Assembly (NCBI GenBank): GCA_963675295.2
Contig: CAXXKJ010000001.1
Location: 32,043-96,042 of the forward strand
DNA from: a bacterium
GTDB taxonomy: Bacteria; Electryoneota; Electryoneia; Electryoneales; Electryoneaceae
Length of the DNA stretch: 64,000 nt
Direction of reading: 5' to 3'
Made by a program: the position numbers and the translations under genes. The notes beneath the pieces were generated by a model that was not told where the DNA came from, made no database searches, and saw only the letters and a program-made list of their open reading frames with translations. Each line of letters begins with the position of its first letter. Positions within the stretch are counted from its first letter, which is position 1. Positions 684 to 27,361 of the stretch are shown one piece after another.

Positions 684-2102
684 ATGAATACGCGCCGGCC
701 ACTCCTGTTTACCCTTGCCTTCCTGTTGACTGTCCCGGCCCTCGCAATTGACTGGTTGTATACAACTGTCGCGGAAGAGGTCGTTTATCTCAATCGCATT
801 GCTCCAGTTGATATTGACGCAGACGGCGATGACGATCTGGTCACATTCAGCCAGATGGGCTTCTGCTGGTGGGAACGTGACGGCCTGGGATACACAATGG
901 CCCTGATTGATTCGGCGACCGGTGATGCCAACGATATGAAAGTTGCCGATATCGATGGAGACGGTGACATCGACCTGCTCACTGCCGACGAAGACATCGA
1001 ATCCATACTCTGCTGGGACTACGACAACGGGTCGTGGAACCAGACCGTGATCGTTGATGACTTTCTCAACGTGCAGAATCTTGCTCCAGCCGATCTCGAC
1101 AACGATGGCGACATGGACATAATCGCATCGTCCGATCCGGAAGATATCATCAAGCTGTTCGAACAGGACGGTGGACAGTGGCATGAATACACCGTTACCG
1201 ACACGATTGCTTCCCCACGAGGTTTGCACGCCTGCGATATGAACCAGGACGGCCTGCTCGACGTAGTCTGCCTCACAGCGCATTCGTTGATCTGGTACGA
1301 ACAAACTACCCTTGACCAGTGGACCCAACACACCATACGCGAGAGTTTCGTCTTCGGCCAGGCGTTTCAGGTCGGCGATCTGGACAATGACGGTGACCTG
1401 GACATTCTTGCCGCAGCCGATGGCGGCCTGCGTGAGGTCACCGTTTTCTACCAGATGGATGAGGGCTGGCGCGAGCTGGTCATCACACACTATTTCGAAC
1501 CACGCGGGCTCAGCCTTGGGGACATCGATCTCGACGGCGATCTGGACTTCGTGCTGACGGCGGGATACGGCGAATCCGCACTGTACTGGTTCGAAAATAC
1601 CGGCGCGCAATGGGTACAAACCTACGTGGAAAGCGGATTCAGCAACCAGAAAGTCGCCTACATCACCCAGTACAACTATGATGGTTACCCGGACATTGTC
1701 CTTGCGCAAGGCGGGCTGGGAGGTCGATTCGGTTGGTTTGAACAGCAGGATCCACCCTACATGCCAGACGTTGAGATCCATCTCACACGGAACGGTCAGC
1801 CATTTATCCCAGCCTCCGGTGGGATGGTTACGTTCGACGCCACCTTCGACAACCATCTCGCAAACGCGGTGTCCGGACAGGCGTGGCTGATGGCAACGCT
1901 TCCCAACGGCAATAACATCGGACCGCTGGTGATGCGCACGATCACCGCCCAGTCAGGCGTCACAACGTATCCCGGATTGACACAGTTTGTCCCCGGGTAC
2001 GCGCCGTTCGGTGTCTATATGTTCCATGGATTGATCGGTGTATACAGCCAGTCCATCGTGATCGATACTGACTACTTCACGATCCTGAAAGAATCCAACT
2101 AA
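684..2102 (+). CDS. FG-GAP/VCBS-repeat secreted protein with the family pre-CTD module but no T9SS sorting domain
   Basis: ORF 657..2102; ATG 684 is preferred because GGAGGGGGGAG lies just upstream. Signal peptide MNTRRPLLFTLAFLLTVPALA. Repeated Ca-binding FG-GAP motifs (DIDADGDDD, DIDGDGDIDLL, DLDNDGDMDII, DLDNDGDLDIL, DIDLDGDLDFV). The last ~105 aa align by eye with the module shared by the downstream genes. The protein ends without the AYPNPFNPSTTL sorting domain. Confidence 0.8.
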   Translation: MNTRRPLLFTLAFLLTVPALAIDWLYTTVAEEVVYLNRIAPVDIDADGDDDLVTFSQMGFCWWERDGLGYTMALIDSATGDANDMKVADIDGDGDIDLLTADEDIESILCWDYDNGSWNQTVIVDDFLNVQNLAPADLDNDGDMDIIASSDPEDIIKLFEQDGGQWHEYTVTDTIASPRGLHACDMNQDGLLDVVCLTAHSLIWYEQTTLDQWTQHTIRESFVFGQAFQVGDLDNDGDLDILAAADGGLREVTVFYQMDEGWRELVITHYFEPRGLSLGDIDLDGDLDFVLTAGYGESALYWFENTGAQWVQTYVESGFSNQKVAYITQYNYDGYPDIVLAQGGLGGRFGWFEQQDPPYMPDVEIHLTRNGQPFIPASGGMVTFDATFDNHLANAVSGQAWLMATLPNGNNIGPLVMRTITAQSGVTTYPGLTQFVPGYAPFGVYMFHGLIGVYSQSIVIDTDYFTILKESN

Positions 2103-2142
2103 GGATCCACAGGCTTGTTGGAATAGCATGCGTCATGTACTT

Positions 2143-2164
2143 CAGCCGCGGTTGTCCGCGGCTG
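2143..2164 (+). terminator. terminator-like hairpin
   Basis: CAGCCGCGG-ttgt-CCGCGGCTG, a 9-bp perfect stem 41 nt after the stop at 2102. It is followed by an A-run rather than a T-run. Confidence 0.45.
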
Positions 2165-2386
2165 AAAAATTAGTCGCTGGGCCGGATTGGCGTCGATCCC
2201 GGCTTGCTCCCATATTCTCCCGAGATTTTCGGAAAACGGCCCGTGGAGGATTGAACTTCCGAAACGATCATGGTACGTTATTGACCGCTTCCGACCCCAG
2301 ATTCTGCTACCTGTACTGCTCGAGTCAAGGTTCGCAGTCCACTCCGTCGTTGGAAGGTACATGCATTCACAAACCAGGGTGGTACC

Positions 2387-3634
2387 GTGAAACGTCAGGC
2401 AATGACACTCCAGTACTCCGCGCCCGCGTTTTTCGCTGTCGCGTTGTTCTCTCTGTTGTTCCTCTTTGCGCCGCAGGCAATCCAGGCGCAACAGCCCGAC
2501 TCGGTCTGGGTACGCTACTACGGTGAAGTTGGTAAAAGCTATTCCCGTGATATCGAAGTCGTAACCGACGGCTTTGTCGTCGTCGGAACGAAATCGCTGA
2601 TGGAAGACAACCTGCCGTACCCGCAGGTCTGGCTGCTCAAATTCAATTTTGATGGTGAAGTCCTTTGGACCCGCGAGTATGGCGATGATCACGCGCAAAA
2701 GGGCTATGCCGTCGCGCCGACCTCGGATGGTGGATTCATTCTCTGTGGATCGTACTGGACCAACGGTATTCCTGATGCCTATGTCATCAAGGTTGGTGCC
2801 AGGGGCCACCTTGAGTGGGAACGGGTGTACCCGACGGAAGATGACACCTTCGCCCGCGACATTAAGCAAACCCCGGACGGCGGCTACGTGGTGACCGGCG
2901 CGACACAGCGCCACGCGATCCAGAACCGGTTGCAGATTGACGCCTACATCATGAAGCTCGATGCCGACGGCAACCAGGAATGGGCGCGTTCCTACGGTGG
3001 CGGCTGGGAAAACGACGAAACGTGGAGCATTATCGTCGAGGATGACGGCTATGCCATCGCGGGACGCACCTGGTCCGGCGGCGCCCAGATGCGTGATGCC
3101 TTGATCGCCAAGATCGACCTGGATGGAAATCCGGTATGGTGGGATATTTACGGCGGTGAATACAAGGACCACATTTACGAATTCCAGCGTATCCCCGACG
3201 GGTCCGGCTATATCTGTGCAGGGAAAACCGAATCGTTCAACCACGGCTTCGACGAACACGGTGACATCTGGATCCTGCGTTACGACCCGAACGGCAACTT
3301 CATGTGGCGATCGGTGATCGGCCACCAGCCGACCGAATTCGGCCGCAGTGTCGACATTCTGCCGAACGGCGATTTCATCGTCACCGGCATGACCGTCACC
3401 AACCAGAACCAGAACCAGATCTTTGTCGGCCGGGCGGATAGCGAGGACGGTGACTGGCAATGGTTTTACGACTTCGGCGGGGTGGGGATGGATGATGCGT
3501 GGAGCGTTCGTGCGATTCCCGGTGGTGACTGGGTGGTCGCCGGCAACACGCAGTCGATGGGTCCGGCGGAACAGAGCATCGTCGTGTTCCGCATGACCGA
3601 AGTGCCTGTCGGTGATCCGGTTTTCGCCCGCTAA
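2387..3634 (+). CDS. secreted beta-propeller-like repeat protein (paralog family, no module, no CTD)
   Basis: GTG start at 2387 (an alternative ATG is at 2402). Hydrophobic signal peptide ending AIQAQ. The recurrent ~50-aa unit contains W...YG and ends in [ST]xDGG[FY][IV]xxG, which resembles SBBP/PQQ-like propeller blades. By eye about half the residues match the next gene. Confidence 0.8.
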   Translation: MKRQAMTLQYSAPAFFAVALFSLLFLFAPQAIQAQQPDSVWVRYYGEVGKSYSRDIEVVTDGFVVVGTKSLMEDNLPYPQVWLLKFNFDGEVLWTREYGDDHAQKGYAVAPTSDGGFILCGSYWTNGIPDAYVIKVGARGHLEWERVYPTEDDTFARDIKQTPDGGYVVTGATQRHAIQNRLQIDAYIMKLDADGNQEWARSYGGGWENDETWSIIVEDDGYAIAGRTWSGGAQMRDALIAKIDLDGNPVWWDIYGGEYKDHIYEFQRIPDGSGYICAGKTESFNHGFDEHGDIWILRYDPNGNFMWRSVIGHQPTEFGRSVDILPNGDFIVTGMTVTNQNQNQIFVGRADSEDGDWQWFYDFGGVGMDDAWSVRAIPGGDWVVAGNTQSMGPAEQSIVVFRMTEVPVGDPVFAR

Positions 3635-3655
3635 CAGCTAGACAGTTGACACTCA

Positions 3656-3697
3656 GGGGGAAGGAGGACGAAAGTCAGCCCTCCCCCTTTTCTGTTT
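3656..3697 (+). terminator. rho-independent terminator
   Basis: The GGGGGAAGG...CCCTCCCCC stem is followed by TTTTCTGTTT, 22 nt after the stop. Confidence 0.6.
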
Positions 3698-3764
3698 CAC
3701 GGCGTACCTTGGCAACTGCAAGTTTGCACCAACTGCCCTGACCATCAATCAGCTGGGACTTCCC

Positions 3765-5126
3765 GTGTCTGCATCACGTCTTCCGTTTACCGCATCACGT
3801 TTGCCACTCCGCTGGGTGCTGACGCTCGCCCTGCTCGGCCTGATTCTGCTCCCGTTCGCGGACGCATCCGCAGTGGAGGCGGACTCCGTCTGGGTCCGCT
3901 ATTACGGCGAAGTCGGCAACAGCATCGCGTTCGATATCGAAATCGTGGACGACGGTATCGTCGTCTCCGGCACCAAGTCGATGATCGAAGGTTATCCGCC
4001 GCTGCCCGCCCTGTGGTTTATGAAGTTCGATTTCAACGGGAACATCCTCTGGCAGCGGGAGTTCGGCGACAATACGGTCGAGAAGGGCTACGGCTTCGCC
4101 AAAACTCCGGACGGCGGCTTCATTGTCAGCGGCACCGACTGGGGCCATGGCCGATCCTCGGTGTACCTGGTCAAAACGGATAACGAGGGCAATCCGGAAT
4201 GGGAACGGCTGTACGCGTCCGAGGTATCGTCCATCGCCCGCGACGTGGAAGTCACCGCGGATGGCGGCTTCGTCATCACCGGCTGGTTTGAGTATAACGA
4301 CAGCACCGGTCAAATCCCGGTTGAAAGCATCTTCGTGATGAAGACCGACTCGCTCGGACACCTTCAGTGGCGGCAGGAATACGGTACCACCTACGCGCGC
4401 GACGAAGCGTGGAGCATTGACGTGCTGGACGACGGCTACGTCTTCGCCGGACGCACCTGGTCCACCGGCGCGGGCATGCGCGACGCGCTGATCGCGAAGA
4501 TCGATCTCGAGGGCAACCTGCTGTGGTATTCCACGCACGGCGGCATCTACAAGGACCACATCTACGAATTCCAGACACTGCCGGATGGCACCGGCTTCAT
4601 CTGTACCGGAAAGACCGAATCGTTCGGACTCGGCCAGCTGACCATCGGCGATATCTGGGTGCTGCGCTTTGACGAGAACGGCGAGTTCATGTGGCGCTCG
4701 GTGATCGGCACTCCGCCCACCGAGTTCGGCCGCAGCATCGACATCCTCGCAAACGGCGATTACATCGTCACCGGCCTTACCGGTACCCAATACCTGAACA
4801 ATCAGGTGTTCCTCGGACGGTCCGATCCGGACGGAAATTTTATCTGGACGTGGCACTTCGGCGAGCCGGGCATGGATGACGCGTGGTGCGTACGCGCACT
4901 TCCCGGCGGCGACTTCATCGTCGGTGGCCTTACCGAATCCATGGGCCCCGCGCCGCGCAGCCTGCTGTTGCTGCGAGTCACCGAAGTGGGCGGCATGCCG
5001 CTGACACCGCCATTCGTCGACAGCACCGCACCGGCATTTCCGCCGTTGCAGGGCATCGTCGCTGACCGTGTCACTGCCGCAGAGGCGATGGCAAGCGAGA
5101 CCAAACGCATCACCATTACCCGCTGA
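3765..5126 (+). CDS. secreted beta-propeller-like repeat protein, tandem paralog of 2387..3634
   Basis: GTG start with a signal peptide ending ADASAVEA. The N-terminus DSVWVRYYGEVGNS... is collinear with DSVWVRYYGEVGKS... of the previous gene. It has the same DGG[FY] blade motif and no CTD. Confidence 0.8.
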   Translation: MSASRLPFTASRLPLRWVLTLALLGLILLPFADASAVEADSVWVRYYGEVGNSIAFDIEIVDDGIVVSGTKSMIEGYPPLPALWFMKFDFNGNILWQREFGDNTVEKGYGFAKTPDGGFIVSGTDWGHGRSSVYLVKTDNEGNPEWERLYASEVSSIARDVEVTADGGFVITGWFEYNDSTGQIPVESIFVMKTDSLGHLQWRQEYGTTYARDEAWSIDVLDDGYVFAGRTWSTGAGMRDALIAKIDLEGNLLWYSTHGGIYKDHIYEFQTLPDGTGFICTGKTESFGLGQLTIGDIWVLRFDENGEFMWRSVIGTPPTEFGRSIDILANGDYIVTGLTGTQYLNNQVFLGRSDPDGNFIWTWHFGEPGMDDAWCVRALPGGDFIVGGLTESMGPAPRSLLLLRVTEVGGMPLTPPFVDSTAPAFPPLQGIVADRVTAAEAMASETKRITITR

Positions 5127-5155
5127 CGAGCGGGTCTTCAGCTGTACACGAAACA

Positions 5156-5185
5156 CATGCGGCGTCCTGCACGGGGCGCCGCATG
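5156..5185 (+). terminator. terminator-like hairpin
   Basis: CATGCGGCG-12 nt-CGCCGCATG, a 9-bp stem 30 nt after the stop. The T-tract is weak. Confidence 0.45.
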
Positions 5186-5432: not shown

Positions 5433-7289
5433 ATGAAGAGGGTATTCATGGTTGCGATCGCGTTGATGCTGACGATCGGGGTCGCATCGGCGCAGTTTGT
5501 GCAGGATTGGCAGACGCTATCCGGTACGAGTTCCAATTCGGAAGCATTTAACGGTGTCTGTGCGGCGTACGGTGGGGGTGTGATCGCTGTCGGCAAGCAG
5601 TACAACACCAGCTCAGGTCTGTTTGAAGCGGTCTACGCGTACATCAATCCAGATGGCACGGTTGCCTGGCGCAATGTTTTCGGCACCGGCACCGGTACGG
5701 ACTTCTGGCTTGATGACGTTTGTCAGGTTCCGGGTGACGTAACCCGTTACGTCGCGGTTGGCTGGGCGCAAAGCGGCAGTACACGATTACCCCTGGCGAT
5801 GGATTTCTACAGCAACGGTACCCTCCATTGGCAGCTGGACTACTTCGGCACGGCCGGCGGTGGCGAACTGCACCATGTTGAACCGGATGGGGATGGATTC
5901 ATTGCCAGCGGTGTCACCGATGGATCAACGTACGCCGATGGCCTCGTTATCCGGATGGGAAATGACATCCTTTACGATTGGCATACGACGCATGGCACGT
6001 ATGACTTCAACCGCCTGTATCACATCTCACCAACGTCTGACGGTGGCTACATCGCAACCGGCTTCGGCTACTCGCAGGCCTCCGGCCGCTACCCATGGAC
6101 ACTGAAGCTCAACTCGAGTGGCGGTCAGCAGTGGAGCTCCTACCGTACCGGCTACTGGTTCGGTGTCGGCCGCTCTGTACTCGAAGCGGACAACGGTGAC
6201 TTCCTCTTCTGCGGCTACTACGATAACGGCCCCGGCGATCAGTTCATGGTCCTGCGCACGAACAGCAGCGGTACCCTTCTGTGGGATGCGGATTTCGGCG
6301 CGGATAACGGTGACGAATACGCCGACTGGATCGCCGAAGCGCCGGGTGGCGGCTACTACCTCACCGGTGACGGCGACAGCAACTTCACCAACGACACCGA
6401 TCTGTGGGTGGTTCACATCGACGAAAACGGGTCGATGATCGACAACCAGATTTTCTCCAGTCCGCGCTACCAGTGGGCGAACGCCGCATGCTTCCTCAAC
6501 TCGTCCGATATTGTCGTCGTGGGCGAGGACAACATCTACTGGAACAACAGCGCCGCGCCGTGGGCGACACGGCTCAGCTACCAGCAGGACTTCGTCGCCA
6601 CTATCGAACCGGCCGCCCCGCCAGTGGTGATCCCGTCCAACGGCGGCTCATTCAACTACATCGTCGGTGCGATTAACAACACCACCAACGCGATTCAGGC
6701 GGATGCGTGGGTGCAGATCCATCACGTTCCGTCCGACATGAGTGTCGAGGTGCGCCTGTTCGAGAACGTTGGCTTCCCAGCGAACAACACCGTCTCCGCG
6801 AACCTGAACCAGTACATCCCGGCGAACGCTCCGGGTGGCGACTACCGCATCAGCCTGTACATCGGTGACCACCCGTGGAGCTACGACACCTTCGCCTCGT
6901 TCGATTTCAGCAAATCGGGCGCGAGCGTGGATGATTTCACCGTCTTCGAGCAGCCGGAACTGTGGACCAGCGGTGGATCGTTCGCGGGCGCGGAGCAGAC
7001 CGTTGCCACGGATGAGACCCTGCCGTCCGAATTCGGCCTCAGCGCGGCGTATCCGAATCCGTTCAACCCGAGCACCACGTTGAACGTGACCATGCCGGAA
7101 GCTGCGACTCTGACAGTTGCCGTCTACAACGTGACCGGGCAGCAGGTCGCCGAACTGGCGCACGGATCATACACCGCCGGGTCGCACACGCTTACCTTTG
7201 ATGCCTCCGGCCTCACCTCCGGCGTCTACTTCGTGCACGCCTCTGCCAACGGCTGGTCGGCGATGCAAAAGGTGATGCTCATCCGTTAA
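5433..7289 (+). CDS. T9SS cargo: beta-propeller-like head + pre-CTD module + type-A sorting domain
   Basis: ORF 5235..7289; ATG 5433 is preferred (GGAGG 6 nt upstream, signal peptide MKRVFMVAIALMLTIGVASAQ). Blades carry the motifs SDGGYIATG, DNGDFLFCG and APGGGYYLTG. The module runs from about 6598 to 6920 (PPVVIPSNGGSF...IPANAPGGDY...GDHPW). The CTD is at 7047..7286 (AYPNPFNPSTTL...GVYFVHA...QKVMLIR). Confidence 0.88.
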   Translation: MKRVFMVAIALMLTIGVASAQFVQDWQTLSGTSSNSEAFNGVCAAYGGGVIAVGKQYNTSSGLFEAVYAYINPDGTVAWRNVFGTGTGTDFWLDDVCQVPGDVTRYVAVGWAQSGSTRLPLAMDFYSNGTLHWQLDYFGTAGGGELHHVEPDGDGFIASGVTDGSTYADGLVIRMGNDILYDWHTTHGTYDFNRLYHISPTSDGGYIATGFGYSQASGRYPWTLKLNSSGGQQWSSYRTGYWFGVGRSVLEADNGDFLFCGYYDNGPGDQFMVLRTNSSGTLLWDADFGADNGDEYADWIAEAPGGGYYLTGDGDSNFTNDTDLWVVHIDENGSMIDNQIFSSPRYQWANAACFLNSSDIVVVGEDNIYWNNSAAPWATRLSYQQDFVATIEPAAPPVVIPSNGGSFNYIVGAINNTTNAIQADAWVQIHHVPSDMSVEVRLFENVGFPANNTVSANLNQYIPANAPGGDYRISLYIGDHPWSYDTFASFDFSKSGASVDDFTVFEQPELWTSGGSFAGAEQTVATDETLPSEFGLSAAYPNPFNPSTTLNVTMPEAATLTVAVYNVTGQQVAELAHGSYTAGSHTLTFDASGLTSGVYFVHASANGWSAMQKVMLIR

Positions 7290-7519: not shown

Positions 7520-9256
7520 ATGAAAACCTTGTTTACGATTCTTATCGCCAGTCTCGTCCTGTGCGGGACAGCGCTTGGCGGCTTCCAGACTGTCACCTTC
7601 ACCAGCGATCAGTTAGGCGAAAATCGCGAAGTCCTGCTCTACACCCCGCCGGGCTACAATCCGAACCTCGAGGGTGGTTATCCTTGCGTGATCATGCTGC
7701 ATGGTCTCGGAATGACACCGTCCGATTTTGACGATCCCCAGTTCGAACTCGCGCTCAATTTCGCGATGCAGACTGGCGATCTGCAGAAGATGATCCTCGC
7801 GTTCCCCGACGGCAGCACCCCGGCCTATTGGGGCGGTTCGTTTTACGTCGATTCCGAGCTGTACGGACGCTTCGAGAAATACATCATCCACGACGTCATC
7901 AACTACCTCGACGGTGAGTACAACACCACCGCGCAGCCGTACGCGCGTGCTATCGCCGGGTATTCGATGGGCGGCTTCGGCGCGGCGCACATCGCGATGA
8001 AATATCCGCAACTGTTCAACACCGCCACCTTCCTCAGCGGACTGCTGTCCGTCTCGAACCAGGAATTCATGATCGCGGATATCATCACGGAAAACGATCC
8101 GAACGGCAACGGCGCACCCTACACCTTCGACCCGAACGCTGGCCTGTTCAGCTATATGGCGTTCTCGATGGCCGGTGCGCTTTCGCCGAATCTGGACAAC
8201 ACACCGCCGGTAGATTTTCCGATCGACGAGAACGGCGACATGGTGCAATGGGTCTGGGATCAGTGGCTGACCTATTCGCCAGATGAACGCGCCGCGACCG
8301 TCCGGGACGAGTTCGACGATCTCGACATCTACTTCAACGTCGGCACGGCGGATGAGTTCGGCTTCTTCATGGGCAACAACGTCTTCGCCCTCGCGTTGGA
8401 CGACGCTGGCATCGACTACACCTACGAAGAATTCGCCGGTCAGACCCATCTGCTGACCGACGAACGGATGATCGCCGCGATCGACTTCATCGACCAATCA
8501 TTCCTCGCCGCGACACCCGAACCGGCCTACCTGATCGCGCTGCCGGACATGGACATCGTCCCGGACAACGGTGGCGAAGTAACCTTCACCGTCAACCTGA
8601 TCAGCAACCTGCCGCAGGATATGAACGGTCTGTATTTTTGGGCGGAGGTGATCCTGCCGAACGGGTCGACCTATCCGCAACGCCTGCTGAGCACCCAGTT
8701 TAACCTGCCCAGCGGAGCGAACCTGAGCGCGGACCTGAGCGTGACAGTCCCAGCGAACGCCCCCGCCGGGGAGTACACTCTGGTGACCAATGTCGGCGTC
8801 AATCCGAACAACGCCGCAGCGTCCGACTTCTTCCACTGGACCAAGTCCGGCCAGACGCTGAGCGGTGATCTCGCCGGGAGCTGGCCTGCATCCTCGAGCG
8901 GTTTCTTTGCAACGACGACGCATGTCGCTGCCGTCTATGAAGCTGCAACGTCCGTTGCCGCTGGAGCAGCTTCAACGTCCGCCGATTTGCCGTCGACGTT
9001 CAGCCTCAGCCCGGCCTACCCGAATCCATTCAACCCGAGCACCACGCTCAACGTGAACCTGCCCGATGCCGCCGAGCTGACCGTGGCCGTCTACAACGTC
9101 ACCGGCCAGCAAGTTGCGACGCTCGCGCAGGGACAGTTTGACGCCGGGTCGCACACGCTGACGTTCGACGCGTCCGAGCTGTCCGCCGGTGTCTATTTCG
9201 TGCACGCCAACGCCAACACCTGGACTGCGACGCAGAAAGTCGTGCTGGTCAAGTGA
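7520..9256 (+). CDS. T9SS cargo: alpha/beta-hydrolase esterase head (putative esterase / CE1-like) + pre-CTD module + sorting domain
   Basis: ATG 7520 follows AGGAG. Signal peptide MKTLFTILIASLVLCGTALG. GYSMGGFGA matches the GxSxG nucleophile elbow, and VIMLHGLG is also present. The module contains VPANAPAGEY. The CTD is at 9014..9253. Confidence 0.85.
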   Translation: MKTLFTILIASLVLCGTALGGFQTVTFTSDQLGENREVLLYTPPGYNPNLEGGYPCVIMLHGLGMTPSDFDDPQFELALNFAMQTGDLQKMILAFPDGSTPAYWGGSFYVDSELYGRFEKYIIHDVINYLDGEYNTTAQPYARAIAGYSMGGFGAAHIAMKYPQLFNTATFLSGLLSVSNQEFMIADIITENDPNGNGAPYTFDPNAGLFSYMAFSMAGALSPNLDNTPPVDFPIDENGDMVQWVWDQWLTYSPDERAATVRDEFDDLDIYFNVGTADEFGFFMGNNVFALALDDAGIDYTYEEFAGQTHLLTDERMIAAIDFIDQSFLAATPEPAYLIALPDMDIVPDNGGEVTFTVNLISNLPQDMNGLYFWAEVILPNGSTYPQRLLSTQFNLPSGANLSADLSVTVPANAPAGEYTLVTNVGVNPNNAAASDFFHWTKSGQTLSGDLAGSWPASSSGFFATTTHVAAVYEAATSVAAGAASTSADLPSTFSLSPAYPNPFNPSTTLNVNLPDAAELTVAVYNVTGQQVATLAQGQFDAGSHTLTFDASELSAGVYFVHANANTWTATQKVVLVK

Positions 9257-9421
9257 CGCTCGAAAGCTACTGAAGCCAGAGAAGCAACGGATGCAACTGA
9301 CGCAACGGAAGTAATAGACAGGAACAGACAGGAAAAGACGCAACAGATGCAGCTGACGGTACTGGCGTAGCTCGTGTTGCTTCAACCATAGACGGGGATA
9401 CCGGCTTCCAGGTGTCCCCGT
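9257..9421 (+). repeat. post-stop low-complexity tract + degenerate REP-A hairpin
   Basis: The tract starts immediately after the stop. A 21-nt imperfect repeat, CAACGGATGCAACTGACGCAA (9285..9305) and CAACAGATGCAGCTGACGGTA (9341..9361), is offset by 56 nt (8x7). The hairpin ACGGGGATACC-ggcttcca-GGTGTCCCCGT is at 9392..9421. Confidence 0.6.
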
Positions 9422-9591
9422 TGTTCCTCACTGGTACGCCTGAACTGCCCCCGCCAATCTCCGCTCCTGAAATGCCATGTGCGATTCATCACACAAACCA
9501 AGTTCGGAACTCCTAACTTCGTCACGAAAGCGGATTCCGCATCTGGACGTGGAGATCCAAACTCGAGACAAATCAAGGGAGAGGGAGTATC

Positions 9592-11479: not shown

Positions 11480-11508
11480 ACAGGGCGTGGCCGCCAGCCG
11501 CGCCCTGT
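11480..11508 (+). terminator. terminator-like hairpin
   Basis: ACAGGGCG-13 nt-CGCCCTGT is followed by GTTCTCGTT. Confidence 0.55.
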
Positions 11509-11796: not shown

Positions 11797-13113
11797 ATGA
11801 AACACGCTACCCGTTGGTTTCTGATGGTTGTCTTGCTGTCCGCGTTCGCCGCTACCGGCGCGCTGGCAAACGAACACGCAATTAACGGTGTCCCTTCGGA
11901 CGAACCTATCATCGACAGCATCCCCTATGACGGCTATGACGAGGACCGGGATAACATCATTGATGTTGAATTCGTCGACTTTGACGACATGGCCGCCCCC
12001 TGCTTCTTCTCAGATCAAGTTCCGCTGAGCAATGAATACGCCACGCAGGGTATCATCTTCAGCGGCCTCGGCGAAGTGCTGGATGAATGCGGAAACTTCG
12101 GCATCAGCAACTACTCATCGCCAAATTTCCTGGCGTTCAACACCGGCGGTGGAGTAAGTGGTCCGGAAGATCTGTTGTTTAACACGCCCATCAACAGCTT
12201 CTCGCTCTATGCAGGGCACAGCAGCGCAGGCACCATCTCGATGCGGGCCTACAACGCGGCCAACGTGTTGATTGACAGTGATGCTATCTCGGGCACGTCG
12301 AACCTGGCGCAAATGTCGGTAAGTGCCCCGGGAATTGTCCGCATTCATTTATCGTTCAGCGGCAGCATTGCCTGCTTTGACGACCTGATGTGGGATGATA
12401 CCCCGCAGACCCCGCTCATCCTTGAGCTGACCCCATTCACCTCGTCCGTGCCCGCCAGTGGTGGCAATGTGCAGTACCTGGCTGAGGTGACGAACTTCAC
12501 CAACTCGCCGATCACGCTGGATGCGTGGATCCAGATTGAACATGTCATGTCCGGCAACACCGTCGAAACCCGCTTCTGGCCGAACCGGACCTACCCGCCG
12601 AACGCGACGTCCAGCGCGATCCTGAATCAGTATATCCCAGCCATCGCGCCGGGTGGATCGTACAACCTGATCGGTATCCTCGGAAATCACCCGTGGGCGC
12701 CGATGTACTGGGATATGTTCCCGTTCGTCAAGACCGGGCCGTCAACGGATGGCATGCAGGCATTCGAACAACCGGAACTGTGGCCGTCAACCGGCAGCTT
12801 TGCCGTAGAAGAAACTTTCGCCGTGACTGCTGAAGGCGAATCACTGCCGCAGGAATTTGCGCTCGGCGCGGCCTACCCGAACCCCTTCAACCCGAGCACC
12901 ACGCTGTCCGTCAACCTCCCCGAAACGGCGGAGCTGACCGTCGCGGTTTACAATGTGGTCGGGCAGCAGGTCGCTGAGCTGGCGCACGGTACCTTCAACG
13001 CCGGGTCGCACATGTTGACCTTTGATGCGTCGAATCTGTCCGGCGGTGTCTACTTCGTGCACGCCTCCGCGAACGGTTGGAACGCGGTCCAGAAGGTTGT
13101 GCTGATGAAGTAA
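11797..13113 (+). CDS. T9SS cargo: unknown ~200-aa head + pre-CTD module + sorting domain
   Basis: ORF 11764..13113; ATG 11797 is preferred (GGAG upstream, signal peptide MKHATRWFLMVVLLSAFAATGALA). I do not recognise the head. The module reads SVPASGGNVQYLAEV...IPAIAPGGSY...GNHPW. The CTD is at 12871..13110. Confidence 0.85.
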   Translation: MKHATRWFLMVVLLSAFAATGALANEHAINGVPSDEPIIDSIPYDGYDEDRDNIIDVEFVDFDDMAAPCFFSDQVPLSNEYATQGIIFSGLGEVLDECGNFGISNYSSPNFLAFNTGGGVSGPEDLLFNTPINSFSLYAGHSSAGTISMRAYNAANVLIDSDAISGTSNLAQMSVSAPGIVRIHLSFSGSIACFDDLMWDDTPQTPLILELTPFTSSVPASGGNVQYLAEVTNFTNSPITLDAWIQIEHVMSGNTVETRFWPNRTYPPNATSSAILNQYIPAIAPGGSYNLIGILGNHPWAPMYWDMFPFVKTGPSTDGMQAFEQPELWPSTGSFAVEETFAVTAEGESLPQEFALGAAYPNPFNPSTTLSVNLPETAELTVAVYNVVGQQVAELAHGTFNAGSHMLTFDASNLSGGVYFVHASANGWNAVQKVVLMK

Positions 13114-13115
13114 TC

Positions 13116-13231: not shown

Positions 13232-13405
13232 TTTGATCTCCTCCGCTCCCCAGCGATCCTAATACGCGACACCCTGCCTCCCGAGTGACCAAAAACACAA
13301 ATCTTGCCCCGTCGATTTGCTTTCTTGTTCGGGTTGCCTAACTTTGCACGCGAGTACACGAACCCAGCTACACGCGATCAATCTCACGGGGATGGAGACA
13401 CGATC

Positions 13406-15268
13406 ATGAAAAACCTGATGCTGTTTACACTTTTACTGCTGATCACTGGAGCTGCCCATGCGCAGCCGATGGTGGAATGGTCCACCGTGGCGGTCGATAC
13501 CTATGACGAACACCTGTACGGCTGCGTTGATCACGTCGACAACGGCGTCATCGCGGTCGGCAATTCGGTTGAGCTGCCGGGATTCAACTTCCGGGGCGTC
13601 TTCACGCGTTTCGCAGATGACGGCACGCTGCTGTGGCAGAACCAATATGAACAGGTCGATTTCTATTTCGACTTCCGTGATGTCTGCGCCGTTCACGGCA
13701 GCACCACGGAATTCCTCGCCGTTGGCTACGCGACCGACTTGAACGCCGGCGAAAGCGACTTTTTCCTGCTGCATTTTGATGACGCGGGCAATGTGCTCAG
13801 CACCGCCAGTTGGGACGAAGGCACGAACGACCAGGCGTACAGCATCGAGCAGGTTCCGGCGGGCGGCTACATTGTCGGCGGCTATTCCGATATTTCCGGC
13901 TACCTGTTCTACCTCGACAACGCACTCAACCAGCAGTGGACCTCCGCCATCGCGCCAACCGGCGTGACGTCGAATTCGCTGAACCAGGTCCGTCCCTTGA
14001 GCTGCGGCGGCTTCATCTGCGCCGGGTCCGCGTTTGACGGCACCTACGCACAGCAATGGGTCGTCCGCACCGATCCGTACGGTCACCCAATGTGGACGTG
14101 GATCAACAGCACGACCAACGTCGGATTCGCCGAGGATGTGATCGAAACCGCCTACGGCGATTACGTGGTCACCGGCGCCGAATACAACAGCGGCGTGACC
14201 AACTACGACACCTGGACCGCACGAATCAGCGAGGCCGGTTCGCTGGTCTGGGAGACCATTGACGGCGGCATCGCGCAGCAGGACTTCAACACGTGGATCA
14301 TGCCCGGACCGGGCAGCGGATACTATATCGGCGGGTACGCCCAGAACGCCGGTGCCGGCGACTACGACCAGCACCTGCAGCAGTTTAACGAAACTGGTAC
14401 CATCGTCAATTCGTGGTTCATCTCCGAGGCCGGCGATCAGCTGATTTTTGATGCCTGCATGGTGGACAACGGCGAATACATCGCGGTCGGCGACCAGGAC
14501 GAGACCGACAGCTACGCGGTCAAATTGACTTTGCCCGCCGCGACATTCAGCGTGTTCGTTGACCCGGCCGCTCCGCCGGTGGTCATCCCGCCGGGCGGCG
14601 GATCGTTCGCGTTCGACGTGGGCGGTACCAACACCTCGGGCACTCCGTTCCTCACCGACGCCTGGATCAAGGTGTCGCACACCCCGACGATGAACTCAGT
14701 CGAAACGCATGTCTTCACCAATGTCGGCATCCCCGGCAGTGGCACGGTGTCCACAACGCTGATCCAGAACATTCCGGCGTTCGCACCGCCGGGAGATTAC
14801 GTGATGACGCTGCATGCCGGGAACTACCCGTGGGTGATCCAGGCGTACGATTCGATGACTTTCAGCAAGAGTTTCGTGACTTCCGCGATGGCGGCCGATC
14901 CCGACTTCGATCCGTCCATCTTTGACCGGGCCGAACTGTGGCCGGTCAGCGGCAGTTTCGACGGCGTAGAAACGAGTGTGATGGCGAACGACACGTCGCT
15001 CCCATCCGAGTTCAGCCTCGGTGCGGCGTACCCGAACCCGTTCAACCCGAGCACGACGCTGTCCGTCAACCTTCCGGAAACGGCAGAGCTGACCGTCGCG
15101 GTGTACAACGTCACCGGCCAACAGGTTGCCGAGCTGGCGCACGGATCGTATGCCGCCGGGTCGCACACGCTGACCTTTGACGCTTCCCACCTGTCCGGTG
15201 GGGTGTATTTTGTCCGCGCACTCAGCGGAAACCAGCACGTGGTACAAAAAGTCTTGTTACTGAAATAA
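13406..15268 (+). CDS. T9SS cargo: beta-propeller-like head + pre-CTD module + sorting domain
   Basis: ORF 13304..15268; ATG 13406 is preferred (GGAGAC upstream, signal peptide MKNLMLFTLLLLITGAAHAQ). The module reads PPVVIPPGGGSFAFDV...IPAFAPPGDYVMTLHAGNYPW. The CTD is at 15026..15265. Confidence 0.88.
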   Translation: MKNLMLFTLLLLITGAAHAQPMVEWSTVAVDTYDEHLYGCVDHVDNGVIAVGNSVELPGFNFRGVFTRFADDGTLLWQNQYEQVDFYFDFRDVCAVHGSTTEFLAVGYATDLNAGESDFFLLHFDDAGNVLSTASWDEGTNDQAYSIEQVPAGGYIVGGYSDISGYLFYLDNALNQQWTSAIAPTGVTSNSLNQVRPLSCGGFICAGSAFDGTYAQQWVVRTDPYGHPMWTWINSTTNVGFAEDVIETAYGDYVVTGAEYNSGVTNYDTWTARISEAGSLVWETIDGGIAQQDFNTWIMPGPGSGYYIGGYAQNAGAGDYDQHLQQFNETGTIVNSWFISEAGDQLIFDACMVDNGEYIAVGDQDETDSYAVKLTLPAATFSVFVDPAAPPVVIPPGGGSFAFDVGGTNTSGTPFLTDAWIKVSHTPTMNSVETHVFTNVGIPGSGTVSTTLIQNIPAFAPPGDYVMTLHAGNYPWVIQAYDSMTFSKSFVTSAMAADPDFDPSIFDRAELWPVSGSFDGVETSVMANDTSLPSEFSLGAAYPNPFNPSTTLSVNLPETAELTVAVYNVTGQQVAELAHGSYAAGSHTLTFDASHLSGGVYFVRALSGNQHVVQKVLLLK

Positions 15269-15293
15269 CCTCTCCCGTATTCGCGTAACTGCA

Positions 15294-15330
15294 ACAGCCA
15301 CAGCCATTTGCTGTGGCTGTCTTATTTCTG
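15294..15330 (+). terminator. rho-independent terminator
   Basis: ACAGCCACAGC-cattt-GCTGTGGCTGT, an 11-bp stem followed by CTTATTTCTG. Confidence 0.75.
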
Positions 15331-15607
15331 ATTATTTCAGTAGTTATGGCGATAGAGTTGCATCACGGTTTATCGCTGTGTAAACTCATTGTTAACCTGC
15401 AGACTTCTTGAGCTAACTACACGTTCTGTCCTTGTCGTTGCCTGTTCAATCTTCGGGGAACCCTTCGCGATTCGACATGAATACAGGATCCGTTTCACGA
15501 CGGTCTTGTGTCCTGCTTTTCCCATGAATCGCCCTGTCTATCGCACCGCCCACCTGCACTGTCTGCGGGGCATTCAGGTTTTCATGGTAACAGAGGAGGA
15601 ATAGACC

Positions 15608-17422
15608 ATGAAACACGCTTCATGTATCGCGATTCTGATCATCGCGCTGCTGGCAACTGCATCAGTGCCCGCGCTCGCCGAAGTCGAATTTACCGAACAT
15701 GTCGTGGATGACGACTTTGCGGGCGCTCAGGACGTGTGCGCCGCCGACATGGACTTCGACGACGACGTCGATTTTATCGCCTGCGGGTATTTCAGCAATC
15801 AGGTGGTCTGGTACGAATGCACGGCACCAAACACTTGGGATCCCCACATCGTTGACTACAATTGTGAAGGAGCGTGGTGCGTCGTCCCGGTCGATCTGGA
15901 TCAGGACGGTGACATGGATTTGATGTCGGCAGCATTTCTGGGTGATGAAGTATGCTGGTATGAAAACGATGGCAACATGAACTTCACCGAGCACTTTATC
16001 ACGTACTCTGATGGGCCAGAATCCATCCAGCCGGTCGATCTGGATCAGGACGGTGATCTGGATGTCGTCGTCGCGGATTACTTTGGCGATGCTGTGAGAT
16101 GGGTAGAAAATGATGGGGCTACGAATTGGACCCTCCATCTTGTGTCTGGAGTGGTCGACGGCGCCTGTTTTATCTTCCCGGTTGACCTCGATGAGGATGG
16201 AGATGTCGACATTATGGCCGCCGCTCGTCACGGGCACACCATGATCTGGTTTGAGAACGACGGCAATCAATCCTTTGCACAATACACCATCGCTGGATAT
16301 TACTCCGGTGCACGCTGCATCTGGCCTGTGGACATGGATGACGACGGCGATTTGGACGCACTCTGCGCGGCGGGGGATGGCGGCACCGTCGACTGGTTTG
16401 AACACACTCCTCAGATGGATTGGCCTCAGCATCAAATTGAGAATTCGCTGATGGGTGCGTGGTATGCCATGCCGGCGGATGTGGACAACGACGGCGACTG
16501 GGATGTGGTCGGATCAGGTTACATCGACAACCGGGTTGCCTGGTGGGAAAACGACGGGACAGCGCTCGGATGGACCGAACACGTCGTCTCAAATTCGTTT
16601 AATGGTGCGCAGACTGTACGGGCCTGCGATGCCGATCAGGACGGATTAATCGATATTCTTGGCGCGGCGTATCTGAACAACGATATCATCTGGTGGGAAC
16701 AGGTACAGAGTCCAATAGTTCTGGATCTTACGCCCGCGACAGAACCGGTGATCGTCCCACGAGGCCAGGCCTTCGCCTACAATCTCATGATCGAGAGCTT
16801 TGTCGAAGTTCCGGTGACAGCATATTTCTGGACCTCAGCCGTTCTACCATCCGGAAACACCTTTGGACCGGTGTACAGCACGCAGATTCCGTTCACCCCG
16901 GGTTTGACGATCGTTGTTAACCAAATACAGCAAATGGTACCCAACTTCGCTCCATTGGGTGAATATCAATGGGTCGCGAACATTGGTCCGAATCCAAACC
17001 AGCCAGCCTACATTTCTGACTCCTTCCCCTTCACCGTTGTGGCGCCGACAGTGACGGGCATGAATTCCACGGCGACCGGCTGGGCCACAAACGGCAACGA
17101 GCGCATACTCGAGGCACTGAACGGATCACCGGTGGCAAGTGCGAAATCGTCCATTCCTGATGCGTTTTCCCTGTCATCCGCATGGCCGAACCCGTTCAAC
17201 CCGAGCACGACGCTGACTCTTGACTTGCCCGAATCCGCCGAGCTGACGGTTGCGGTCTACAACGTCACCGGCCAACAGGTCGCCGAGCTGGCGCACGGAT
17301 CGTATGCCGCCGGGTCGCACACGCTGACCTTTGACGCCGCGAATCTTTCAGCCGGTGTGTACTTCGTCCGAGCGTCGGCTGGGCCGTGGAATGCGGTTCG
17401 GAAAATCGTGCTTTTGAAGTAG
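15608..17422 (+). CDS. T9SS cargo: FG-GAP/VCBS-repeat head + divergent pre-CTD module + sorting domain
   Basis: A GAGGAGGA SD precedes the start. Signal peptide MKHASCIAILIIALLATASVPALA. Seven FG-GAP Ca-binding motifs (VDLDQDGDMDLM, VDLDQDGDLDVV, VDLDEDGDVDIM, VDMDDDGDLDAL, ADVDNDGDWDVV, and others). The module is divergent (VPNFAPLGEY). The CTD is at 17180..17419 (AWPNPFNPSTTL). Confidence 0.88.
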   Translation: MKHASCIAILIIALLATASVPALAEVEFTEHVVDDDFAGAQDVCAADMDFDDDVDFIACGYFSNQVVWYECTAPNTWDPHIVDYNCEGAWCVVPVDLDQDGDMDLMSAAFLGDEVCWYENDGNMNFTEHFITYSDGPESIQPVDLDQDGDLDVVVADYFGDAVRWVENDGATNWTLHLVSGVVDGACFIFPVDLDEDGDVDIMAAARHGHTMIWFENDGNQSFAQYTIAGYYSGARCIWPVDMDDDGDLDALCAAGDGGTVDWFEHTPQMDWPQHQIENSLMGAWYAMPADVDNDGDWDVVGSGYIDNRVAWWENDGTALGWTEHVVSNSFNGAQTVRACDADQDGLIDILGAAYLNNDIIWWEQVQSPIVLDLTPATEPVIVPRGQAFAYNLMIESFVEVPVTAYFWTSAVLPSGNTFGPVYSTQIPFTPGLTIVVNQIQQMVPNFAPLGEYQWVANIGPNPNQPAYISDSFPFTVVAPTVTGMNSTATGWATNGNERILEALNGSPVASAKSSIPDAFSLSSAWPNPFNPSTTLTLDLPESAELTVAVYNVTGQQVAELAHGSYAAGSHTLTFDAANLSAGVYFVRASAGPWNAVRKIVLLK

Positions 17423-17452
17423 GTCGGTACGCGTTTGCCGCGAAATTGTTAG

Positions 17453-17490
17453 CGGAGACGGGTCCAATGGGCCTGTCTCCGTTGTTTTTT
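17453..17490 (+). terminator. rho-independent terminator
   Basis: CGGAGACGGG-tccaatgg-CCTGTCTCCG, a 10-bp stem with one G-U pair, followed by TTGTTTTTT. Confidence 0.8.
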
Positions 17491-17673
17491 CAGGGTTTCA
17501 GCAGACTTCCCGCAATCTCTCCTCCCAGTCTGCGACCTCATCGAATCCTTGTAATTCGCTTGCATCTAGCAGACCATCATCCAACTTTCTCAGACTGTCG
17601 TGGACTGGCACCGCGACAGGCGCGCGGAACCCCCTCCGTGCGGGCTGAATTTCGGGAAATGGGAGCAAAATTC

Positions 17674-19548
17674 ATGAGACGACCACTGGTCATGATCGTC
17701 GCAGCGATGCTGTTCGCGACGATCACAAACGCCGTGCCTCCTGTCGAAGACTGGGAAGCGTCCTGCGGCTACAATGATATCGAAGATGTGGTCCGTGGCA
17801 TCACCGCCAGTGCGGACGGCGGATTCCTCGCCGTCGGCACCGCCGATGACAGCACCAACGCGGACGCGTACTACCGATTCACGCAGGACGGCTTCGTGCC
17901 CTGGTTCCAGACTCCGGGCATGGATGATGTTGACCTTTACGATGTCACACAAGATCCCAACCAGGACAACACCTACTACGCCATCGGCACACGCCGGGAC
18001 CCGCAGGACGTGTCGCTGATTCATTTCCACGATCAGAACGACGAATGGACCTGGCTCGACGTGCATCATTACAACCTGCCCTCGGCGTATGGCCTGTCCG
18101 TTGACAACACGCCCGGCGGCGGGCTGGTGATGGGCGGTGAGGTGGATGGACGCGCGTTGCTGATGATCTCCGACGGCAACCTGGACGATCCGACCATCGT
18201 CGAAATCGACATGTACTACCGCCACCGGCTGTATGACGTGAAAGCGACCTCGGACGGAGGCTACATTGGCTGCGGCTTCGTTTTTCCGTCCTCACAGCAT
18301 CCGAAAAGCCAGTTCTGGGTGGTGAAAACCGACGCCAACGGCGCCGTTCAATGGGATTATGTCGCGGGTGGAAATGGCGCGGATACGCTGCGTTCCGTGG
18401 CCGAGGTGCCGAACGGCGACTTTATCGTTTGCGGCACACGCGAAAATTCACCCGGCAACCCGAATTTCTGGACCACCCGGCTGACCGCGGACGGCGCTAA
18501 TGTCTGGACCCGTGAATACGGCTCGTCCAGCGGCGAAGAGTACGGCTTCTGGGTCGACAACGCCCCGGATGATGGCTTCTACCTCGGTGGGACCGCGATC
18601 AACTCCTACAGCAACGGTGCGGACGCATGGCTGGTGCTGCTCAACGAAAACGGGCTGCAGGTGTGGACCGACTACTACGGTGGCGAGAACGATCAGTTCG
18701 CGTACGCGTGGACTCTGCTCCCTGACAACAGCATTGCGGTCGCAGGCAACATGCCGGATGGCGAGGATATGCAGGCATGGGCGGCGCACCTGATGATCCC
18801 GGAGAGCTTCGTCATTGCTATCGAGCCGGATGATCCGGACCTGATCATGCCGGTCGAAGGCGGAACCTTCGGCTACACCGTTTCCGCCGCCAACAACTCC
18901 ACCGTCGGGATGATCAAGGACGCGTGGATCTCGATCATGCACCTCGATACCGGAAACGCGATCGAACTGCAGTATTTCGAGAGCGTCGGCTTTGCTCCAC
19001 TCAACAGCGTCAGCGCGCACCTCAACCAGTACATGCCGGCCGTTGCGCCGCCGGGAACCTACCGCATGTCGCTGTTCGTCGGCAATCACCCGTGGTACCC
19101 GCAGTACATCAACACCTTCGAGTTTGATAAGGAAACCCCGGTACGTACCGACATGAGCGTCTTCGACCATCCCGAGATGTGGCCGTCCACGGTCACCTAC
19201 AGCGAGTTCGATGTCGGCGCGGACATGCTCGCCGGCTTCTCGCCGGGGGTGGATATGCTGGTCACGTCGGACGACGAGCTACCCGCCGAATTCGGCCTCG
19301 GGAACGCCTACCCGAACCCGTTTAACCCAACGACCACGCTGAATGTCACGCTGCCGGAATCCGCCGAGCTGACCGTCACCGTGTACAACATCGCCGGACA
19401 GCAGGTCGCGACCCTCGCGGACGGCACCTTCCCGGCCGGAGCTCACGCGCTGACCTTCGACGGATCGACCCTGTCCAGCGGCGTCTACTTCATCATCGCA
19501 AACGCGAACAGCCAGCTCGCGACGCAGAAGGTCGTCCTGATGAAGTAA
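17674..19548 (+). CDS. T9SS cargo: beta-propeller-like head + pre-CTD module + sorting domain
   Basis: ORF 17386..19548; ATG 17674 is preferred (GGGAGC upstream, signal peptide MRRPLVMIVAAMLFATITNA). Blades carry SADGGFLAVG and TSDGGYIGCG. The module reads MPVEGGTFGYTV...MPAVAPPGTYRMSLFVGNHPW. The CTD is at 19306..19545. Confidence 0.88.
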   Translation: MRRPLVMIVAAMLFATITNAVPPVEDWEASCGYNDIEDVVRGITASADGGFLAVGTADDSTNADAYYRFTQDGFVPWFQTPGMDDVDLYDVTQDPNQDNTYYAIGTRRDPQDVSLIHFHDQNDEWTWLDVHHYNLPSAYGLSVDNTPGGGLVMGGEVDGRALLMISDGNLDDPTIVEIDMYYRHRLYDVKATSDGGYIGCGFVFPSSQHPKSQFWVVKTDANGAVQWDYVAGGNGADTLRSVAEVPNGDFIVCGTRENSPGNPNFWTTRLTADGANVWTREYGSSSGEEYGFWVDNAPDDGFYLGGTAINSYSNGADAWLVLLNENGLQVWTDYYGGENDQFAYAWTLLPDNSIAVAGNMPDGEDMQAWAAHLMIPESFVIAIEPDDPDLIMPVEGGTFGYTVSAANNSTVGMIKDAWISIMHLDTGNAIELQYFESVGFAPLNSVSAHLNQYMPAVAPPGTYRMSLFVGNHPWYPQYINTFEFDKETPVRTDMSVFDHPEMWPSTVTYSEFDVGADMLAGFSPGVDMLVTSDDELPAEFGLGNAYPNPFNPTTTLNVTLPESAELTVTVYNIAGQQVATLADGTFPAGAHALTFDGSTLSSGVYFIIANANSQLATQKVVLMK

Positions 19549-27357: not shown

Positions 27358-27361
27358 ATCC

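Follow-up and report, generated by a model that had tools for sequence, protein, structure and literature searches.

An RbmA-like beta-sandwich between variable heads and type A sorting domains in a ten-gene array from Electryoneota: a possible stalk or insulator of type IX secretion cargo

RbmA of Vibrio cholerae is a free, dimer-forming protein of two domains and, to our knowledge, lacks a C-terminal sorting domain (CTD) for type IX secretion systems (T9SS); the usual setting of the CARDB, NEW3 (NPCBM_assoc), DUF11 and DUF7507 domains is a tandem repeat or a glycosidase, and, as far as we know, they are not typically found as a single domain tied to such a CTD with a conserved tail. The placement of an Ig-like domain ahead of a T9SS CTD is an established design, known from RgpB, Kgp and PPAD (PMC4804311). 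For the immunoglobulin-superfamily (IgSF) domain that precedes the CTD of RgpB, a function as spacer or insulator has been suggested (PMC4804311), and a point mutation which breaks the contact of the CTD with the preceding domain blocks secretion (PMC11285876). RbmA, for its part, is a biofilm matrix protein that binds Vibrio polysaccharide (VPS) (PMC5605196). Here we describe an array of ten genes, referred to as g1 to g10, which spans positions 684–19548 of a 64,000-nt stretch of DNA (the window) from a bacterium of the Electryoneota (assembly GCA_963675295.2, contig CAXXKJ010000001.1, positions 32,043 to 96,042 of the forward strand). Eight of the ten genes encode a module of ~112 aa, which by sequence profiles and predicted structure is a divergent branch of the RbmA-like fibronectin type III (FnIII)/CARDB-like Ig-fold superfamily, and which may serve as a stalk or insulator between a variable head and the CTD.

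The module is present in g1 and in g4 to g10, with five core copies (g4, g6, g7, g8 and g10) that are 33–56% identical to each other and three further copies (g1, g5 and g9) that are 20–31% identical to all others. The similarity between the copies, which had been noticed by eye in an earlier, sequence-only reading of the window, survives proper alignment, as cross-validated hidden Markov models (HMMs) recover the copies at E-values of 1e-7 to 2e-12: the HMM built from g4, g6, g7, g8 and g10 retrieves g5 at 4e-10, g9 at 1e-9 and g1 at 1e-7, and the reciprocal HMM built from g1, g5 and g9 retrieves the core five at 2e-12 to 8e-8. The residue pattern given in that reading describes eight real copies, but its strict DAW and HPW motifs are found in the core five only. 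No ninth copy was found in the 64-kb window, where the next six-frame match has an E-value above 0.3. The near-invariant positions of the module comprise two glycines, a tryptophan in strand C and the motif P-x-x-A-P-x-G-x-Y, with the remaining positions being variable; in our judgement, these conserved residues look structural and fit a scaffold better than a ligand site.

The module had been considered not assignable to a named domain by eye; it can now be placed with the RbmA-like FnIII and CARDB-like domains by both profile and structure matches. Among PDB sequences, a profile of the eight copies matches V. cholerae RbmA at 9e-5, and profiles of 26 and 34 sequences match it at 3.9e-12 and 2.5e-12, respectively, with both FnIII domains of RbmA aligned, and no PDB sequence besides RbmA falls below an E-value of 0.1 with the module profiles. 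The AlphaFold2 model of the g6 module, computed with 26 sequences, is a seven-stranded beta-sandwich with a predicted local distance difference test (pLDDT) score of 97.1, for which the top Foldseek match is RbmA (4be6_A, E-value 7e-7, query TM-score (TMq) 0.78–0.79) at a sequence identity of 14–18%. The next matches are CARDB (3idu, TMq 0.64), followed by the FnIII-like domains of GH3 enzymes; no CARDB sequence match to the module was obtained in Pfam scans, and the likeness to CARDB is structural. Single modules from the window gave no match at threshold to Pfam or NCBIfam. The g5 module is the sole window copy with sub-threshold matches to NEW3 (2.7e-5; 21.4 bits versus a cut-off of 24.4) and to RbmA-like_FnIII (PF22021; 0.0019, with 15 bits for the whole protein versus a gathering threshold of 27 bits), and when sets of 26 and 34 family members were scanned, 7 and 6 of them, respectively, matched PF22021, with best E-values of 2.8e-4 and 2.2e-5. 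A derivation of the module from a duplicated CTD or a FlgD-like domain was ruled out, with hhalign giving a probability of 0.6% for the module against the CTD profile and with all FlgD_ig matches in the Pfam scan of the array proteins falling on the CTD. The fold of the module is already known, and its family is one that goes unrecognised at threshold by Pfam and NCBIfam in every copy examined. The reservation of the sequence-only reading that an already described domain might be at hand is therefore half borne out, because the module is homologous to RbmA, yet no copy shown reaches the Pfam cut-off.

Genes g4 to g10 end in a type A CTD, with scores of 37–48 bits versus a cut-off of 23 for TIGR04183 and of 40–52 bits versus 27 for PF18962, and a six-frame search of the whole 64 kb with a CTD HMM returns exactly these seven CTDs and none in g1, g2 or g3. 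A conserved linker followed by a type A CTD had been read in the seven genes; the CTD is present in all of them, but the strict linker motif F(E/N)(Q/N)PELWP..GSF occurs in five only. What all seven genes have is a Trp with a Gly three residues on (five in g5), and a [LI]P-x-[ETA]-F-x-L motif immediately ahead of the CTD. In an alignment of 128 module-to-CTD junctions, Trp and, four residues on, Gly are each ~93% conserved, with the Trp of this W-x3-G motif lying ~12 residues past the module and with P-x-E-F-x-L leading into the CTD. W-x3-G is found in 109 of 130 tails versus 45 of 640 control windows, and of 18 internal modules remote from any CTD, 7 have it behind them; examples are the multi-unit proteins P0123, with the tail after all three units, and P0124, P0126 and P0150, with the tail after both. 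Its occurrence after internal modules distant from a CTD indicates that the tail belongs to the module, and not to the signal. In the full-length model of g6 (pLDDT 81.7) the module occupies aa 385–492 and the tail, at aa 495–515, is ordered with a pLDDT of ~80, and it is followed directly before the CTD by a disordered linker at aa 516–529, the 14-aa segment EQAEEAVVADANAL, for which the pLDDT is below 50. As modelled, this disordered segment would be the natural candidate for cleavage by a sortase.

The CTDs of the seven paralogues are 62–89% identical at the amino acid level versus 25–56% for the modules, and the cargo CTDs of Porphyromonas gingivalis have been reported to be without significant sequence similarity (PMC11285876). 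At fourfold-degenerate sites, identity amounts to 0.55 in the CTDs, 0.45 in the modules and 0.41 in the heads, with ~0.34 expected by chance, and it reaches ~0.7 in the pairs g5–g6, g6–g7, g6–g8 and g6–g10. Concerted evolution was rejected as the main cause of the uniformity of the CTDs, their fourfold sites being only modestly more alike; this modest excess means that CTD conservation is mainly a matter of purifying selection. Hence, selection through a shared secretion machine mostly accounts for the uniformity, and conversion, of which the four pairs at ~0.7 carry a modest signal, adds to it on occasion.

The family to which the module belongs was delimited by an exhaustive HMMER search over 1.84 billion cluster representatives (50% identity clusters). 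This approach was chosen because a word-indexed homologue search missed the module, returning nothing for the 8-copy alignment and one match for one typical copy; domains that are short and divergent seem to slip through such an index. The exhaustive search gave 3,794 clusters at E ≤ 1e-3, with 1,837 left at E ≤ 1e-10. These numbers have to be taken as upper bounds, since the module profile is also matched, over its N-terminal third, by repeat proteins of the DUF7507/DUF11 type. Context statistics were drawn from the best 150 of the 3,794 matches, 134 of which are near-full-length modules, with the other 16 matching the profile in part; the two partial matches that were scanned (P0121 and P0131) are DUF7507/DUF11-type or NEW3-like repeat proteins, of related Ig-like families, and do not contain genuine modules. 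A CTD lies downstream of the module in 113 of the 134, starting at a median of 37 aa after it (interquartile range, IQR, 34–39), and most of the other 21 end at the module or a few residues past it, which suggests that these are truncated gene calls. A single module copy is present in 119 of the 134 proteins and two or three copies in the other 15. The heads are highly diverse, as 81 proteins carry 50 different Pfam families, among them Beta_helix (11 proteins), FG-GAP_3 (7), HYDIN/ASH Ig (6) and LVIVD (4), along with Kelch, NosD, PMP repeats, BNR and InhA-MAM.

The order in which the module precedes the CTD holds outside the window not only in the representatives but also in 44 related loci, fetched by means of a subfamily of six sequences plus the pattern IPANGGSF[DQ], where 101 of 107 modules are in the same open reading frame (ORF) as a CTD. 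These loci contain ~149 CTDs (by hand sum), and a sizeable minority of their CTD proteins are without a module. Co-directional clusters of module genes are common among them, as in L001, where nine modules occur within 22 kb of a 4.09-Mb contig, and one metagenome-assembled genome (MAG) by itself supplied more than 20 loci. The named sources are Zixibacteria, LCP-89, Calditrichaeota, Candidatus Tariuqbacter (Electryoneota) and one Planctomycetota-labelled MAG, a taxonomic list that is biased towards the subfamily used as the query. With the exception of the Planctomycetota-labelled MAG, they belong to lineages of the Fibrobacterota–Chlorobiota–Bacteroidota (FCB) group (looked up for LCP-89 and Candidatus Tariuqbacter), and as far as named sources go the module family is confined to FCB candidate phyla. 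Within the literature library searched, there was no paper that links RbmA-like domains to the T9SS and none that mentions both the T9SS and Zixibacteria.

Two kinds of departure from the usual arrangement were observed in the family. Complete ORFs that end a few residues past the module and have neither tail nor CTD are represented by g1, P0041, P0055 and an ORF at 7647–9827 of locus L002 in a sister genome; such proteins are natural variants lacking the CTD, with the periplasm as a possible end location. In P0123 (1290 aa), P0126 and P0143, two or three units of head, module and W-x3-G tail appear to be arranged in series and followed by one terminal CTD, as if neighbouring array genes had been fused after losing their internal CTDs.

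The sequence-only reading had described the array as ten co-directional genes with signal peptides, and all ten ORFs were recovered at or near the expected positions on the plus strand of 684–19548, with no convincing genes on the opposite strand there. Each of the ten N-termini carries a hydrophobic stretch of 12 aa (Kyte-Doolittle 2.5–3.05), preceded by K or R in nine of the ten genes (g2, read from the ATG at 2402, has neither) and followed by an AxA-like site, as judged by eye; by hydropathy and inspection, the products of g1 to g10 are thus predicted to have signal-peptide-like N-termini and to be exported by the Sec pathway. In g1 (684–2102), the signal peptide is followed by an FG-GAP propeller head (FG-GAP_3, 4e-31) and by the module at 1749–2099 (7e-36 with the module HMM, 1e-7 with the core-only HMM), directly after which comes the stop codon, so that the protein has neither tail nor CTD; no CTD remnant is detected 3' of the gene by the CTD HMM. 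The other FG-GAP head is that of g9 (15608–17422; FG-GAP_3, 7e-30), with the module at 16706–17041 and the CTD at 17183–17419. Propeller heads are combined with module and CTD in g4 (5433–7289; module 6582–6920 at 1e-48 with the module HMM, tail and linker 6921–7049, CTD 7050–7286 with PF18962 at 3.6e-11), in g6 (9592–11445; a seven-bladed propeller at aa 23–380, module 10735–11073, corresponding to aa 382–494, CTD 11206–11442), in g8 (13406–15268; module 14534–14872, CTD 15029–15265) and in g10 (17674–19548; module 18799–19134, CTD 19309–19545). In contrast to these, g2 (2387–3634) has a signal peptide and an SBBP/delta-60-type propeller only (sub-threshold NCBIfam matches to Lepto_SBBP_lipo at 3e-12 and to delta_60_rpt at 1e-9), and g3 (3765–5126) is a propeller-only paralogue of it; neither matches the module HMM or the CTD HMM. 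The delta-60/SBBP propeller signals of g2, g3, g6 and g10 are sub-threshold in Pfam and NCBIfam, and g4 and g8 were put in the propeller group via full-length alignment and their DGG[FY] repeats; the propeller of g6 resembles that of CylK (Foldseek, E-value 3e-18). An esterase (alpha/beta-hydrolase) head is found in g5 (7520–9256; PF00756, 1e-21), ahead of a module at 8516–8851, a linker and a CTD at 9017–9253 (PF18962, 2e-12). The head of g7 (11797–13113), of ~175 aa, is unassigned, with no Pfam match at E ≤ 10, and it is followed by a module at 12403–12738 (6e-44), tail and linker, and a CTD at 12874–13110 (PF18962, 7e-11). The four head types that had been proposed by eye are accordingly confirmed as FG-GAP, the PF00756 esterase, the delta-60/SBBP-type propeller and the g7 head without Pfam match.

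A terminator-like GC-rich hairpin is located after g6 (11480–11508, plus strand), and further terminator-like hairpins lie after g8 (15294–15320), g9 (17450–17484) and g10 (19587–19610), with stems of 10–16 pairs positioned 26–39 nt past the stop codons; at least four genes therefore have a terminator-like hairpin of their own. No promoter or leader motif common to the ten genes was found on their 5' side beyond a purine run resembling a ribosome-binding site and the ATCATGAAA start context, sigma-70-like sites are at background level, and there are no Rfam matches in the window.

The sister genome GCA_020444425.1, at ~86–88% nucleotide identity, contains the same array at locus L002, with three differences: a swap of g9, two extra genes, and the absence of a gene that follows the array in the window. 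In the first of these, g9 is replaced in L002 by an ORF of 718 aa with a CTD and without a module, for which Pfam support of an LVIVD head is faint. The left breakpoint lies at ~15219 in the CTD of g8 and the right one at ~17358 in the CTD of the swapped gene (L002 15897–18250), both at the GVYFVRA codons near the end of the CTD. At the right breakpoint, identity as read from the printed alignment changes from ~55–60% on the 5' side to ~95% on the 3' side within a few bases, and the high identity persists across stop codon, spacer and terminator hairpin. Such a pattern is the mark that homologous exchange between repeated CTD sequences leaves behind. The second difference is a 5.1-kb indel between g5 and g6 (window 9260–9442 versus L002 4719–9842), by which L002 has two extra genes, encoding a 617-aa protein with propeller, module and CTD and a 726-aa protein which ends at the module and has no CTD; this indel is not bounded by CTD sequence, as both of its ends are intergenic. 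The cassette system proposed in the sequence-only reading is upheld as an evolutionary pattern of domain shuffling, with one CTD-bounded recombination, but not as a dedicated switching mechanism. The gene missing from the sister genome encodes a deoxyribodipyrimidine photolyase-related protein (DPRP; PF04244) and is located directly after the array (19670–21202, plus strand); the Rrf2-type gene that flanks it is conserved in the sister genome at 91% nucleotide identity.

Elsewhere in the window, an outer-membrane barrel of the PorV/PorQ family is encoded at 61055–62323 on the plus strand (NF033709, 168 bits versus a cut-off of 90), a sequence match supporting the presence of a T9SS in the organism; genes for SprA/Sov, PorK/L/M/N and PorU were not seen within the 64-kb window. 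The barrel gene is overlapped by 4 nt by an ORF of 1192 aa (57480–61058, plus strand) with a CTD-like C-terminus of the pattern VVPNPY...IRIFNV...GIYIYHV...VIK. This ORF has no Pfam or PDB sequence match, and it weakly matches the PorZ (0.0019) and PorU (0.099) models in their C-terminal regions. Its identity as PorU is not established, these matches being weak and C-terminal; judging from its sequence, the ORF may encode a highly divergent part of the attachment complex that serves the T9SS. The pair that it forms with the PorV/PorQ gene recalls porU–porV or porZ–porQ. A further feature of the window is a cbb3 oxidase maturation cluster (22253–29659, plus strand) with a P-type heavy-metal ATPase, a FixG-like ferredoxin and a fused CcoN–CcoO cbb3-type oxidase, a 722-aa ORF that unites COX1 and FixO. 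The window also encodes an IS-type DDE transposase (DUF772 + DDE_Tnp_1_6; 42606–44111, plus strand), which has the gene of an M32 carboxypeptidase on one side and a NiFe-hydrogenase cluster (44368–51363, minus strand) on the other.

The homology, fold, position, spacing, head diversity and distribution of the module, together with the one CTD-bounded swap, are observations, and alongside them we favour, with confidence and doubt about evenly balanced, the reading that the module is a membrane-proximal stalk or insulator of T9SS cargo. In this architecture, a head would be followed by the ~112-aa RbmA-like beta-sandwich, a ~20-aa ordered W-x3-G tail, a ~14-aa disordered linker rich in acidic residues and Ala, and the type A CTD. 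The CTD would carry the folded protein across the T9SS translocon and would be cut off by a PorU-type sortase inside the disordered linker, so that the mature protein would end, on its membrane-proximal side, in the beta-sandwich and the tail. There, the beta-sandwich would act as a rigid stalk or insulator, which would both shield the CTD from the folding of the diverse heads and hold the head off the surface. A unit that works independently of its head could for that reason have been combined with dozens of types of head in candidate phyla of the FCB group, and arrays would grow by duplication and recombination, with the strongly conserved CTD coding sequence at times being the crossover site. 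The proposal in the sequence-only reading of a constant stalk or adaptor with a secretion tag under interchangeable heads agrees with the four head folds in the window and with the 50 Pfam families in 81 proteins. It has to be said that several observations weigh against a stalk or insulator: a tail with 93%-conserved Trp and Gly and a linker constrained in length are not obviously needed by a passive spacer, the homology of the module to RbmA, which binds Vibrio polysaccharide (PMC5605196), makes a binding role possible, g1 has the module and no CTD, and many CTD proteins of the same genomes are without a module, which is therefore not required for T9SS export.

As an alternative, the module and its W-x3-G tail could belong to an extended signal for sorting or attachment, which in non-Bacteroidota FCB phyla would be read by a PorV/PorU-like shuttle or sortase or would give the acceptor context for anchoring. 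We regard this as possible though doubtful. It would fit the tight module-to-CTD spacing (median 37 aa, IQR 34–39), the Trp and Gly columns conserved at ~93% in the linker alignment of 128 proteins, with W-x3-G in 109 of 130 tails versus 45 of 640 controls, and the CTD that almost always accompanies the module; furthermore, secretion of RgpB needs contact of the CTD with the preceding domain (PMC11285876), and motifs in both Ig-like domains of RgpB have been proposed to dictate its processing (PMC4804311). However, the W-x3-G tail also follows internal modules distant from a CTD, the g1 module has neither tail nor CTD, and CTDs occur without modules, as in locus L007, with 10 CTDs but 2 modules, and in the LVIVD gene of L002, which has a CTD and no module. 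A role in the binding of a glycan or exopolysaccharide, by which the module would, like RbmA, tether the heads non-covalently to the envelope or biofilm matrix, seems unlikely to us. The significant sequence and structural homology to RbmA, a direct VPS binder (PMC5605196), speaks for it, as do the weak similarity to NEW3, which is associated with alpha-galactosidases, the structural similarity to CARDB, and the many adhesin-like or carbohydrate-related heads (beta-helix, FG-GAP, Kelch). Yet the identity to RbmA is only 14–18%, the conserved positions look like core residues and same-genome paralogues share 25–56% identity, and RbmA acts as a two-domain dimer, whereas the module is present in single copy in 119 of 134 proteins.

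A combination of these ideas, which we consider quite improbable, would have the module and its W-x3-G tail serve a T9SS variant of non-Bacteroidota FCB phyla as an element dedicated to attachment or processing, either as a sortase or anchor determinant or as a self-glycan anchor replacing the A-LPS (A-type lipopolysaccharide) linkage, with the near-uniform CTD coding sequences serving as recombination handles for head cassettes; if true, this would amount to a rapidly reconfigurable surface proteome. At the other extreme, the array could be the product of plain tandem duplication of one ancestral gene with subsequent divergence and without any shuffling of heads. The genes g4, g6, g8 and g10 (and likewise g2 and g3) do have the same propeller type and the most similar modules, and are probably tandem duplicates. 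But the FG-GAP, esterase, SBBP-propeller and g7 heads differ in Pfam family or fold, the module of g7 falls in with those of the propeller genes (41–46% identity) despite the unrelated head of g7, 50 head families occur across the family, and a whole gene is swapped relative to the sister genome. Tandem duplication as the complete explanation is already contradicted by these findings, and we give it hardly any credence. On balance, the stalk or insulator role of the module is favoured over roles as an extended signal or as a glycan anchor, with the three not being mutually exclusive.

Compared with the described systems, the module is closest to RbmA in sequence and structure. Both are seven-stranded FnIII-like sandwiches with a Trp and P-x-G-x-Y as landmarks (RbmA: PF22021; PDB 4kkp, 4be5/4be6), and RbmA is the sole PDB protein detectable by the module sequence profile as well as the best structural match. 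Unlike RbmA, the modules of the window are single, C-terminal and fused to heads, seven of them also to a CTD. The CARDB, NEW3, DUF11 and DUF7507 domains are of the same beta-sandwich class, with the window copies falling below their gathering thresholds. The module family, with its ~1,800–3,800 clusters at 50% identity, is now delimited and tied to a solved structure, that of RbmA, which should allow annotators to tell head, stalk, tail, linker and tag apart in thousands of entries that bear no other label than "T9SS type A sorting domain-containing protein".

In its arrangement, the array most resembles the gingipain IgSF-CTD pairs of P. gingivalis (RgpB, Kgp and PPAD), in which an Ig-fold domain of ~80–110 aa is likewise located directly N-terminal to a type A CTD (PMC4804311). 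The gingipain linker is disordered and is cut by the sortase, and the linker after the array module is disordered as well and would be cleaved in the same manner, so that the location of sortase cleavage is predicted in a testable form. In sequence and structure searches, no match of the module to Peptidase_C25_C (the gingipain IgSF) was obtained at E ≤ 10 in Pfam scans, and no gingipain structure is among the Foldseek top 50. The linker also differs, with ~37 aa and an ordered W-x3-G tail in the array family versus 9 disordered aa in RgpB. What is new is a large, coherent, unannotated family of pre-CTD domains with a conserved tail, its confinement, going by the named sources, to FCB candidate phyla, and one clean gene-cassette exchange bounded by CTD sequence; the latter, with both of its breakpoints in the CTD, suggests how such arrays get remodelled. 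These findings do not overturn the current understanding of the T9SS. Whereas the gingipain IgSF domain has been characterised in Bacteroidota, the module family is reused under ~50 head families in Zixibacteria, LCP-89, Calditrichota and Electryoneota, and the design principle of the gingipain IgSF-CTD is thereby extended well beyond Bacteroidota.

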